A stretch of DNA of 64,000 nt, from positions 407,205 to 471,204 of the forward strand of contig CAYWVD010000001.1 of the NCBI GenBank assembly GCA_964461915.1, given 5' to 3'. The DNA is from an uncultured Candidatus Saccharibacteria bacterium. Its GTDB lineage: Bacteria > Patescibacteriota > Dojkabacteria > B142 > OLB20. Shown piece by piece: positions 35,212 to 38,514 of this stretch. Under the pieces are notes generated by a model. It was not told where the DNA came from, made no database searches, and saw nothing but the letters and a program-made list of their open reading frames with translations. The position numbers and the translations under genes were made by a program. Positions within the stretch are counted from its first letter, which is position 1. Every line of letters begins with the position of its first letter.

Positions 35212-36327
35212 ATGATTCAATTTGTAACAGTATCAAAAAAATACGATAACGATTACGAAGCCCTAAATGAAATCAATTTTGAGATTCAAGATGGCGAATT
35301 CGCATTCTTAGTAGGCCCCTCGGGCTCAGGTAAAACCACTATAATAAAGTTATTGATTCGTGAAGAAGTTCCAAGTTCGGGAAAGATTTACTTTGATGAT
35401 CAAGACATTACCAAATTTAATAGGCAAGATGTCTATTCTTTAAGACGAAAAATTGGAGTTATTTTCCAAGATTTTAAATTGATCAATGAACTCACAGCTT
35501 ATGAAAATATTGCCTTTGTGATGGAAGCAGCTGGCAAACCAGAAAAAGAAATAATCGAGAATGTTCCCTACCTATTAGATATTGTCGGTCTCAGCAGTAG
35601 AATGAAGGCTTTCCCCGAACAATTATCAGGCGGAGAAAAACAAAGAGTAGCAATTGCAAGAGCTATGGCTAATAATCCAAAACTTTTAATAGCAGACGAG
35701 CCAACAGGGAACTTAGATCCTGAGACAGCCTGGGATATTGCTCAAATACTTTATAAAATTAATAATTGGGGGACAACAGTTTTGATGTCTACTCATGGAT
35801 CCGATATTGTGAATTCTATGCATAAAAGAGTCATAAGACTTCAAAAAGGGCAAATCATTAGAGATGATTATAAAGGAGGATACGATGATGTAGATGAATA
35901 TAGTATGAAGATTTTAACATCAAATGAATCTGATAAATCTATTCAATTGAGATCTTCAAAATCGGAAAAACCCCAAATTGTAACTGAGGATATAAAAGTT
36001 GAAGGAACAGCTGAAGTAATCAAGGTTTCAGAAAAACCAGAAGTTATAGAGGAAAAAAAGGTCGACGGAAAAAGAAAAAAGAAGATTTCTTTTTCAGTTA
36101 AATCAAAATCTCCTAAAGTTGTCCTTAGCGCAAAAAACACTCCTAAGGAAAAACCCGAACAAACGCTTGAAAATTCTGGCCTAAATGAAAGCTTGGTAAA
36201 AACCCTTAAAGAAATCGGTTATACGGATTTAGAAAGCTTGAAAGAGAAGGGGGTAGACCATTTAAGAAATATCGATAAACTTACCGATATTCAAATTAAA
36301 CAAATTCAAAAATTAATTAATAATTAA
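35212..36327 (+). CDS. ftsE: Cell division ATP-binding protein FtsE with ~145-aa C-terminal extension (K/E-rich linker + HhH-like domain)
   Basis: FtsE core residues 1-225 (Walker A GPSGSGKTT, signature LSGGEKQRVAIARA, Walker B LLIADEPTGNLD) followed by a low-complexity Lys/Glu stretch and LNESLVKTLKEIGYTDLESL...LTDIQIKQIQKLI resembling a helix-hairpin-helix module. Confidence 0.8.
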   Translation: MIQFVTVSKKYDNDYEALNEINFEIQDGEFAFLVGPSGSGKTTIIKLLIREEVPSSGKIYFDDQDITKFNRQDVYSLRRKIGVIFQDFKLINELTAYENIAFVMEAAGKPEKEIIENVPYLLDIVGLSSRMKAFPEQLSGGEKQRVAIARAMANNPKLLIADEPTGNLDPETAWDIAQILYKINNWGTTVLMSTHGSDIVNSMHKRVIRLQKGQIIRDDYKGGYDDVDEYSMKILTSNESDKSIQLRSSKSEKPQIVTEDIKVEGTAEVIKVSEKPEVIEEKKVDGKRKKKISFSVKSKSPKVVLSAKNTPKEKPEQTLENSGLNESLVKTLKEIGYTDLESLKEKGVDHLRNIDKLTDIQIKQIQKLINN

Positions 36328-36332
36328 ATAAT

Positions 36333-37262
36333 ATGGGCGTTTTTACATCGATAAAAAGATCGTTTGGCAATACTAAGAAACAGATCAAACGAAGTGGATG
36401 GCTTGCTTGGGCATCAGTCTTAGTCATGACATTAGCGTTTTTCATAGCAAGTGTATTTTTGCTATTGGCTTACCTTTCGAATCTTTTCTTATTATCAATA
36501 GAAAACAAACCTCATATTTATGTCTTTTTTAATGCTGGTACTCAAGAATCAACAATTAAAACACTTAATGACCAATTAATTTCGATGGATGAAGTTTTCC
36601 ATGTCGAATATACAGATGAGAAGGGCGCAATCACTGAATTTAAGGCTGTTCAAGAGAAAAAGGATCCTCAACTCGCACAAAACATTAGATCAAATGTATT
36701 ACCACCAAGTTTGGGGGTTAGATTAAAAAGTATAGACGATGCGGATAAATTTATAACATATTTATCTAATGAAAAGTTAAACAATGATGACATCTTTGCA
36801 GTCAGATACAGCAAAGAATCAATTGATATGATTAAAACACTTTTCTATTGGCTTCGTATCGGCGGGGGGATAATTATTGGTTTATTGCTTGTGGTAATTT
36901 TTCTTTTCACACTTCTTACGGTAGAGTTTAGAACCTTCTCTAGAGCAGAAGAAATTGGAATTATGCAACTTGTAGGCGGGAGTCTTTGGTTTATCCGGTC
37001 TCCGTTCATATTCGAAGGCGCATTCTATGGAATGGTAGGTTCTTTCATAGCTAATTCAATTATCTTCATATTGTATTTTATTGTTTTTTACCTAAATGCC
37101 AGCAGTTCTGCTGTCACCTTCGTAATAAATTTGTTTGGGAATCTTTCTTGGCCAACATTAGAACCAGTTCACTACATAATATTCTTTTTAGGGACATTAT
37201 TATTCGGAGCAATAGTCGGTGCATTCAATAGCATAGTAGCCATAAGGAAATATATTTATTAA
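36333..37262 (+). CDS. ftsX: Cell division permease FtsX
   Basis: 4 TM with large periplasmic loop 1; immediately after ftsE. Confidence 0.8.
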   Translation: MGVFTSIKRSFGNTKKQIKRSGWLAWASVLVMTLAFFIASVFLLLAYLSNLFLLSIENKPHIYVFFNAGTQESTIKTLNDQLISMDEVFHVEYTDEKGAITEFKAVQEKKDPQLAQNIRSNVLPPSLGVRLKSIDDADKFITYLSNEKLNNDDIFAVRYSKESIDMIKTLFYWLRIGGGIIIGLLLVVIFLFTLLTVEFRTFSRAEEIGIMQLVGGSLWFIRSPFIFEGAFYGMVGSFIANSIIFILYFIVFYLNASSSAVTFVINLFGNLSWPTLEPVHYIIFFLGTLLFGAIVGAFNSIVAIRKYIY

Positions 37263-37281
37263 TTTGTGCTATATTATTTAT

Positions 37282-38514
37282 ATGAAGAGTTTTTTAAAGA
37301 AAATCAACTTCTTTCTTATAATAATATTTGCGTTTAGCTTCTCATCTCCGATATTAACCGTGAATGCAACACTGCAAGATGATCTCGCTGCGGTCCAACA
37401 AAAGCTTAAAGATATTAAGAATCAGAAGAATACAATTCAACAATCATTAAATAAAGATAAATCTCTCCAGAATCAATATTCAGTTGAGATTATGAATTTA
37501 AAAAATCAGATCGATCTATTAGATACTGAAATCAAAGAAAAGGATCTTATTATTCAAGAACTTAATCTTCAAATCCAAATACTAACTCAAAATATTGAGA
37601 CAACCACTAACGAGATTTCAACTGCAAAAAATGAAATAGTGAAGCTTGAAGACGAAACCGATAAAAGGCTTGTTGATATTTATATTTCTGAAAAGACCTT
37701 TTCTCAACTCGATATGTTCTTAAATGAACAAGGTGGAGACATAATCAAACTTAGCGTTTACCAAAAGTCTTTTCAAATGGAAACTAATAAATTATTGAAT
37801 GAATTAAACCAAAAGAAAATTGATCTTGAAAAAAAACAAAAACAACTCGAAACCGATAAAGCTCAAATAATTTTAGATCAAACTACCCTCGAAACCGAAA
37901 AGGTAGCACTTACAAAAAAGCAAGCTGAATTAGATGGCCAGCGAGCCGTTTTCTACAAAAAACGAAACGAATTAACTGCAAGCATTCAACAGAATAATGA
38001 TCTAATCAATATCTATTCTCAGGAAGAACAAAAGACTCTTGCACTTCAAAACAAAATTGAACAAGAACTTTTTAATAATGTCGCTAACCTTGGAAACGGA
38101 ACTTATGTAGTAAAAGGGACCATCATTGGTCGCCAAGGATATTCAGGCTATGTGATTCCAAAAGGGCCATCTGGAGCTCATCTTCATTTTGCAACAAAAG
38201 TAAATGGGAGTTCAGTAAATCCATGTTCCTTGTTACCAACAGGGACATTCTCAAATTGTGGAGGTTCAGGACAAATCAGTTGGCCACTAAGAAGTCCTTT
38301 CTATTACACATCATCCTATGGGTGGAGATGGGGCAAGTGGCATGACGCGATTGATATTGCCTCTTCAACAACACATGCTTATATCTACGCCGCCCATGAT
38401 GGCTGGCTTTACAAAGGTGGTAACTTTAGCGGCGGATTTTGGAGAAAAATCTGCGAGACTAAGGACAATTGCTCAAAAGGCGTTTATACTTTCTATCTTC
38501 ATTTAGCTGAATAA
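37282..38514 (+). CDS. EnvC-like coiled-coil protein with circularly permuted M23 (LytM) peptidase domain
   Basis: Signal peptide from ATG 37282 (the ORF-track start at 37264 is a TTG codon), ~230 aa coiled coil. Then the M23 C-half (GTYVVKGTIIGRQGYSGY...GAHLHFATKVNGSSVNP) precedes the M23 N-half (WPLRSPF...YGWRWGKWHDAIDIA...GVYTFYLHLAE, stop). Follows ftsEX as EnvC does. Confidence 0.7.
   Translation: MKSFLKKINFFLIIIFAFSFSSPILTVNATLQDDLAAVQQKLKDIKNQKNTIQQSLNKDKSLQNQYSVEIMNLKNQIDLLDTEIKEKDLIIQELNLQIQILTQNIETTTNEISTAKNEIVKLEDETDKRLVDIYISEKTFSQLDMFLNEQGGDIIKLSVYQKSFQMETNKLLNELNQKKIDLEKKQKQLETDKAQIILDQTTLETEKVALTKKQAELDGQRAVFYKKRNELTASIQQNNDLINIYSQEEQKTLALQNKIEQELFNNVANLGNGTYVVKGTIIGRQGYSGYVIPKGPSGAHLHFATKVNGSSVNPCSLLPTGTFSNCGGSGQISWPLRSPFYYTSSYGWRWGKWHDAIDIASSTTHAYIYAAHDGWLYKGGNFSGGFWRKICETKDNCSKGVYTFYLHLAE

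Follow-up and report, generated by a model that had tools for sequence, protein, structure and literature searches.

A conserved family of circularly permuted, probably active M23 endopeptidases in CPR bacteria, usually encoded third in an ftsE-ftsX operon-like unit

The gene beside ftsEX and its layout

The window analysed here is a stretch of 64,000 nucleotides (nt) with a GC content of 34%, taken from an uncultured Candidatus Saccharibacteria bacterium that GTDB places in the Dojkabacteria (contig CAYWVD010000001.1, positions 407,205 to 471,204 of the forward strand). Directly downstream of ftsE and ftsX it carries a gene for a 410-residue protein in which a coiled coil leads into an M23 (LytM) domain whose two halves stand in swapped order. 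We describe this protein as a member of a conserved, circularly permuted M23 endopeptidase family, probably active, of bacteria of the Candidate Phyla Radiation (CPR, or Patescibacteria), where its gene is usually the third of an ftsE-ftsX operon-like unit. The gene and its parts, in window coordinates, are as follows.

37282..38514, + strand: gene for the 410-residue coiled-coil and permuted M23 protein (open reading frame, stop codon included; Pfam M23, 33.4 bits)
37282..37365, + strand: probable Sec signal peptide, residues 1-28, MKSFLKK...ILTVNA/TLQ (read from sequence)
37366..38061, + strand: coiled-coil region, residues 29-260 (composition and weak coiled-coil-type matches)
38062..38511, + strand: C-terminal M23 domain of 150 residues, residues 261-410 (motifs, Pfam and PDB matches)
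38086..38226, + strand: M23 'C-terminal-type' half, placed first, residues 269-315, with H300-L-H302 (HxH, nt 38179-38187) and NPC (PF01551 positions 57-96; 9gy1_A residues 95-142)
38227..38274, + strand: new linker from ancestral C- to N-terminus, residues 316-331 (without counterpart in canonical M23 alignments)
38275..38511, + strand: M23 'N-terminal-type' half, placed last, residues 332-410, with H354xxxD358 (nt 38341-38355), Y405 and H407 (nt 38500-38502) (9gy1_A residues 22-92)

The ATG at 37282 is the start used by gene callers in independent assemblies and gives the 410 residues; the listed open reading frame reaches further upstream, to a TTG at 37264. Judged by eye, the N-terminus is signal-peptide-like: its n-region is basic, a hydrophobic core follows, and VNA forms a cleavage-type site. 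The 232 residues that follow hold no proline and three glycines, are rich in L, Q, K, I and E, and in profile scans match coiled-coil-type models only, weakly (SMC_prok_B over residues 31-260, DUF3450 and ATG16), in keeping with the ~230-residue coiled coil that an earlier reading of this DNA, the original prediction, had placed ahead of the M23 domain. We presume this region to be the FtsX-binding and regulatory module. The protein ends at E410, and the gap to truB on the other strand is only 37 nt.

Within the domain the motifs run VVKGTIIGRQGYSGY...GAHLHFATKVNGSSVNPC, then SLLPTGTFSNCGGSGQ, then ISWPLRSPF...YGWRWGKWHDAIDIA...AAHDGW...GVYTFYLHLAE and the stop. In domain numbering, which starts at residue 261 of the protein (nt 38062), V..G..IG..G.SG...HLHF...NP occupies residues 9-55, the linker 56-71 and WP...HDAID...Y.HL 72-150, and H40, H42, H94, D98, Y145 and H147 correspond to H300, H302, H354, D358, Y405 and H407 of the protein. 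The open reading frame and every motif quoted in the original prediction lie where it had put them, including those of a domain said to begin at 38077; the start itself belongs a few residues earlier (~38062-38086).

Swapped order of the M23 halves and the family that shares it

Against the Pfam model PF01551 (Peptidase_M23) the protein scores 33.4 bits, above the gathering threshold of 28.7, and the match is split into two non-colinear stretches, the better of which pairs protein residues 270-314 with positions 57-96 of the 96-position profile. A pair of swapped partial matches is what the original prediction had expected from this search. With phmmer against the PDB, domain residues 79-131 fall on residues 27-79 of 9gy1_A and residues 15-55 on 101-137, and a 60-member family profile likewise puts its positions 72-153 on 22-92 and 9-55 on 95-142 (E 1.4e-20); Csd1/2, Pgp3, NMB0315, ShyA and others give the same swapped matches with the family profile. 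Pfam, PDB and family-profile matches therefore all agree with the proposed layout of C-type half, linker, N-type half and end, and this two-stretch mapping at the level of sequence tells us that the swapped order is real and far beyond chance.

The C-terminus of the protein and the start of the domain map to near-adjacent residues of 9gy1_A, 92 and 95, and between the canonical termini runs a bridge of ~16 residues without counterpart there. Such a junction, together with the bridge, points to a clean circular permutation in which nothing was lost or duplicated. When the halves were re-ordered in silico, second before first, a single PF01551 stretch from position 2 or 3 to 96 of 96 resulted for the window protein and likewise for two distant relatives, and the score rose from 37.3 to 42.7 bits for the window protein, from 51 to 56 for P0004 and from 85.6 to 92.4 for P0129. 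For the window domain a colinear match over positions 3-96 of 96 was obtained only in the re-ordered form.

AlphaFold2 (AF2), supplied with a 60-sequence family alignment, predicts a single compact all-beta domain with a predicted local distance difference test score (pLDDT) of 93.7 and a predicted template modelling score (pTM) of 0.89; from the single sequence the pLDDT is 35.7. The original prediction had suggested modelling the domain and comparing it with LytM-type structures, and the nearest solved structures to the model are indeed M23/LytM domains. Foldseek of the same model against the PDB returned no significant match. Two BFVD entries, A0A510E7V3_3 and H6WFX6 (a virion structural protein of cyanophage S-TIM5), align to the permuted model over 144-177 columns (Foldseek, TMq ~0.52, E ~1e-3), and on these models large phage virion proteins could contain tandem or permuted M23 modules.

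Could the two stretches instead be remnants of two defective tandem M23 domains without a complete fold, or the product of a sequencing or assembly error? A priori they could, as permutation by duplication and then truncation passes through a tandem stage. The original prediction had named both as grounds on which it would fall, and neither survives: a profile scan of residues 1-260 found no M23 remnant, nothing lies beyond the N-type half since the reading frame stops three residues past H407, the junction maps to the adjacent residues 92 and 95 of 9gy1_A, and AF2 packs both halves into the one domain. Moreover the identical 410-residue protein is present on five contigs that come from different sequencing runs and were assembled independently, and the topology is common to ~60 divergent representatives. 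We give this explanation next to no credence.

Queried with the window's domain alone, a word-indexed search of proteins yielded one relative. To reveal the rest, HMMER had to be run exhaustively over 1.84 billion representatives (50% identity), giving 1036 hits at E <= 1e-3, the best 150 of which were examined. About 60 of these 150 are colinear with the whole permuted domain, which answers the survey of orthologues that had been proposed as a check, and in ~80, which are canonical M23 proteins, the match falls into two stretches in swapped order. A relative from another metagenome contig, its M23 domain 83% identical, has the same order. Permuted members end in Y-x-H-[LVMF] and a short tail (2-6 residues beyond the last His in 48 of 60), and most of those that are full length have 380-450 residues arranged as signal, coiled coil and permuted domain. 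One metagenomic protein of 924 residues, P0040, carries its permuted M23 domain at ~767-909, with a Cys-containing tail, behind a long N-terminal region that is not a coiled coil. Going by this different N-terminal region, the permuted module is reused in a second architecture.

Searching the GTDB species representatives with the eight closest family sequences as seeds, we located 22 permuted loci, the closest with a domain 96% identical to that of the window. As labelled, they come from Patescibacteria/CPR metagenome-assembled genomes (MAGs) of Dojkabacteria, 'Saccharibacteria', Doudnabacteria and BroJett037, except for one labelled Ignavibacteriaceae. Named representatives with the permuted topology are all Patescibacteria, and the Microgenomates protein P0229 is likewise permuted. 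At L025 3606-5000 (Microgenomates bacterium OLB23, LMZU01000006.1) a permuted M23 gene is called as 165 residues, with ~1.4 kb of uncalled DNA upstream and without adjacent ftsEX; in this MAG a frameshift or a wrong gene call may affect the coiled-coil part. Two actinobacterial loci (L023 and L024) considered as permutants outside the CPR have canonical order and end in ...HLHF...DP. In a neighbour-joining tree of re-ordered domains one branch splits 59 of the 60 permuted sequences from all 79 canonical ones, P0129 being the outlier, and this split and the shared cut point fit, without proving, a single ancient origin of the permutation.

The linker between the halves had been described as a short Gly/Ser linker. 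It lies at residues 316-331 and is not floppy: AF2 with the family alignment predicts these residues at pLDDT 93-98, and two conserved cysteines, Cys315 and Cys326 (domain C55 and C66; nt 38224-38226 and 38257-38259), bracket it. Spacing from NP to WP, which contains the linker, varies from 11 to 32 residues across the family. A second cysteine pair, C391 and C397 (domain C131 and C137; nt 38452-38454 and 38470-38472), lies in the N-type half. Among the 60 members the C55/C66 pair is complete in 53, half present in none and absent from 7, and the C131/C137 pair is complete in 51, half present in none and absent from 9; the number of cysteines per domain is even in nearly all family members. 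All-or-none pairs and even counts suggest disulfides in an extracytoplasmic enzyme, one of them stapling the new linker. In the loop past AAHDG an additional C....C insertion is present in many members.

Catalytic residues and the ftsEX neighbourhood

In M23 enzymes zinc is held by the His and Asp of H(x)nD and by the second His of HxH, and water is activated by the first His of HxH and by another His normally ~30 residues upstream of it (PMC9662197). In an alignment of 60 representatives, with a mean column identity of 31%, the permuted domains have invariant G26, H40, H42, H94, D98, G114, Y145 and H147. The H(x)nD motif (H354-D-A-I-D358) and the HxH motif (H300-L-H302) are thus each kept in 60 of 60 members, and so is H407, in the Y-x-H-L motif, the equivalent of LytM H260. 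This third His is invariant as a residue and has moved in sequence position, lying ~105 residues past HxH where in canonical M23 it lies ~30 residues before that motif. By alignment, then, the domain keeps the full catalytic set, namely putative zinc ligands H354, D358 and H302 and putative water-activating H300 and H407. That all five should be invariant at such low identity argues for retained catalysis, and it favours the view taken in the original prediction that with every metal-binding residue present the protein may be active rather than a degenerate EnvC-type activator.

A permuted fold that is real and yet catalytically silent has to be considered as well: the protein would then be a regulator of the EnvC, NlpD or DipM type (a LytM factor), its groove activating another hydrolase such as an amidase. 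EnvC and DipM, though, are degenerate precisely at the zinc ligands, E. coli EnvC having W320, V324 and Y401 at these positions and being inactive (PMC11627006), whereas in the permuted family, unless selection for catalysis is assumed, it is difficult to account for five invariant catalytic residues. In addition, no amidase gene was identified beside the permuted M23 gene, the rest of the window not having been scanned exhaustively. A silent regulator seems to us improbable, although not negligibly so.

The genes immediately upstream carry clear Pfam assignments.

35212..36327, + strand: ftsE, ABC ATPase, 371 residues (Pfam ABC_tran, E 8.9e-37)
36333..37262, + strand: ftsX, 309 residues, extracellular and permease domains (Pfam FtsX_ECD, E 1.2e-10; FtsX, E 8.6e-9)

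The EnvC-like architecture downstream of FtsEX is thus as the original prediction had it, and 19 nt separate ftsX from the start codon of the permuted M23 gene. The order ftsE, ftsX, permuted M23 recurs in 13 of the 22 related loci, with domains down to ~42% identical to that of the window. Upstream of ftsE lie prfB on the + strand and then, both on the opposite strand, an open reading frame without assignment and an S49 peptidase gene; downstream follow truB (opposite strand), a Na/Ca exchanger, a HhH-GPD glycosylase and an FtsW/RodA gene. FtsE is usually ~220-230 residues long. Here it has a K/E-rich C-terminal extension of ~150 residues (window 35842-36327) that ends in a weak HHH_5 match (E 0.054), and as the FtsE reading frames of related CPR loci (L001-L014) are also long, at 355-460 codons, the extension looks conserved.

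In a second synteny group (L008, L012 and L015-L022) signal, coiled coil and permuted M23 recur in the same architecture away from ftsEX. In seven of its loci trxB and trxA lie upstream on the opposite strand (trxB alone in L016), and in eight a cysteine-desulfurase-like gene lies downstream; L017 and L022 have other neighbours.

Taken together, we consider it likely that the window protein is a secreted, active, permuted M23 peptidoglycan endopeptidase under FtsEX control and not an EnvC-type activator. The ancestral chain would have been cut in the loop just past the 'Y-x-H-L' strand that bears the third catalytic His, and the old C- and N-termini joined by the ~16-residue linker, probably stapled by a disulfide; the resulting order of HxH, linker, HxxxD, catalytic His and end would retain the M23 fold. 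In EnvC, PcsB, CwlO and RipC a coiled coil binds the extracellular domains of FtsX and ATP-driven mechanotransmission relieves autoinhibition (PMC7668044, PMC11627006). The same architecture beside ftsEX suggests that the permuted protein is the CPR counterpart of these FtsEX partners, and from synteny and architecture we infer FtsX binding and ATP-dependent release from autoinhibition. Most likely the FtsEX ATPase complex would hold the protein at the division site and, by way of the coiled coil, activate it in the manner of PcsB, CwlO and RipC, and the permuted domain would itself cut peptide cross-links of peptidoglycan. As the enzymatic domain looks competent, septal cross-links would be cleaved directly, as in Gram-positives or mycobacteria, and not by way of activated amidases.

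Several points weigh against this reading. We infer zinc binding and hydrolysis by the permuted domain from its residues, and the oxyanion Tyr has its equivalent at position 86, where family members have Y, F or W and not strictly Tyr, which leaves some doubt on activity. The case for both halves superposing together on one M23 structure, made from sequence mapping and a confident single-domain model, is strong but indirect. By sequence, no relative of the coiled coil is detectable in the PDB, nor any similarity to EnvC, PcsB or RipC. Finally, in 9 of the 22 related loci the gene lies away from ftsEX, near trxB/trxA and a sufS-like gene, so coupling to FtsEX may not be universal.

The last two points, and the different N-terminal region of P0040, would also suit an active permuted M23 hydrolase that is free of FtsEX control, adjacency being a matter of gene order only and the coiled coil serving oligomerisation, spacing or autoinhibition. 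It is difficult to reconcile this with the tight ftsE-ftsX-gene unit, its 19-nt spacing and its retention in 13 loci of such divergence. The FtsX of the window also carries the extracellular domain, which in other systems binds coiled-coil partners (PMC7668044), and the characterised genes of the same architecture beside ftsEX all encode FtsEX partners (PMC11627006). We think independence from FtsEX unlikely, and continue to favour the FtsEX-controlled endopeptidase.

Sequence mapping has the coiled coil enter the domain at the loop right past the catalytic-His strand, and H407 is three residues from the free C-terminus. Both ends of the chain would lie at the active site, with the coiled coil leading straight into the strand that comes after this His in canonical enzymes. 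It is tempting to speculate, and we do so very tentatively, that the permutation is functional rather than a neutral accident, FtsEX-driven movement of the coiled coil gating catalysis by positioning the catalytic-His strand. If true, mechanotransmission would here take a new form, unlike the 'restraining arm in the groove' of EnvC and PcsB, and the protein would offer a natural template for engineering switchable lysostaphin-type enzymes.

Relation to known M23 and FtsEX systems

M23/LytM domains (lysostaphin, LytM, ShyA, EnvC, NlpD) are among the most studied modules of peptidoglycan hydrolysis and its regulation, and the family is defined by a fixed motif order. We found no report of a permuted M23 in open-access full text; reviews of M23 (PMC9662197) and FtsEX (PMC11627006) mention none, and neither Pfam nor NCBIfam has a dedicated model. 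Source annotations of relatives read 'hypothetical protein', 'putative peptidase' or 'MepM/NlpD', and the precomputed Pfam label of the window protein is a 'faint' Peptidase_M23. Routine pipelines that depend on order can easily overlook or mislabel permuted members, and given the faint label and the blank Foldseek result against the PDB, surveys of CPR cell-wall hydrolases may miss them. That a permuted lineage is conserved indicates that the M23 fold can be re-threaded at a defined loop, a property of use in enzybiotic engineering. For the CPR/Patescibacteria, ultrasmall organisms whose cell division is almost unstudied, the lineage also fills a gap among the types of FtsEX partner with an apparently active M23 enzyme.

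The closest relatives are the canonical M23B/LytM zinc endopeptidases (LytM, lysostaphin, ShyA, MepM, Csd3 and StM23 9gy1; PF01551). They have the same HxxxD, HxH and third His, share the 'G..IG..G.TG' and 'NP' motifs, show significant similarity in both halves and provide the nearest solved folds; the permuted domain differs in its swapped halves, its new linker and, in most members, its paired cysteines. EnvC of E. coli and V. cholerae (PDB 6TPI, 4BH5, 8TZL) resembles the window protein in layout, being an FtsEX-bound coiled coil with a LytM domain, but that domain is in canonical order, lacks the zinc ligands and activates amidases. In the permuted protein the ligands are invariant and the coiled coil enters the domain elsewhere, next to the catalytic-His strand. 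With all ligands and both catalytic His invariant, the protein ought not to be classed with the EnvC-type LytM factors.

PcsB (CHAP), CwlO and RipC (both NlpC/P60) are FtsEX-activated and share the proposed logic of a coiled-coil adaptor with an active hydrolase released from autoinhibition; their catalytic domains, however, are cysteine peptidase folds, not zinc M23, and none is described as permuted. A precedent for natural circular permutants in a peptidoglycan-peptidase superfamily exists in the permuted NlpC/P60 families (YaeF/poxvirus G6R and LRAT-like; PMC6403190), which have another fold, a papain-like Cys-His site and no link to FtsEX, and circular permutation is also known among distantly related hybrid beta-domains (PMC11515920). 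The window protein is, in sequence and in predicted fold, an M23 homologue, and its non-colinear order and moved third His make it a topological variant of canonical M23B/LytM enzymes rather than a standard member.
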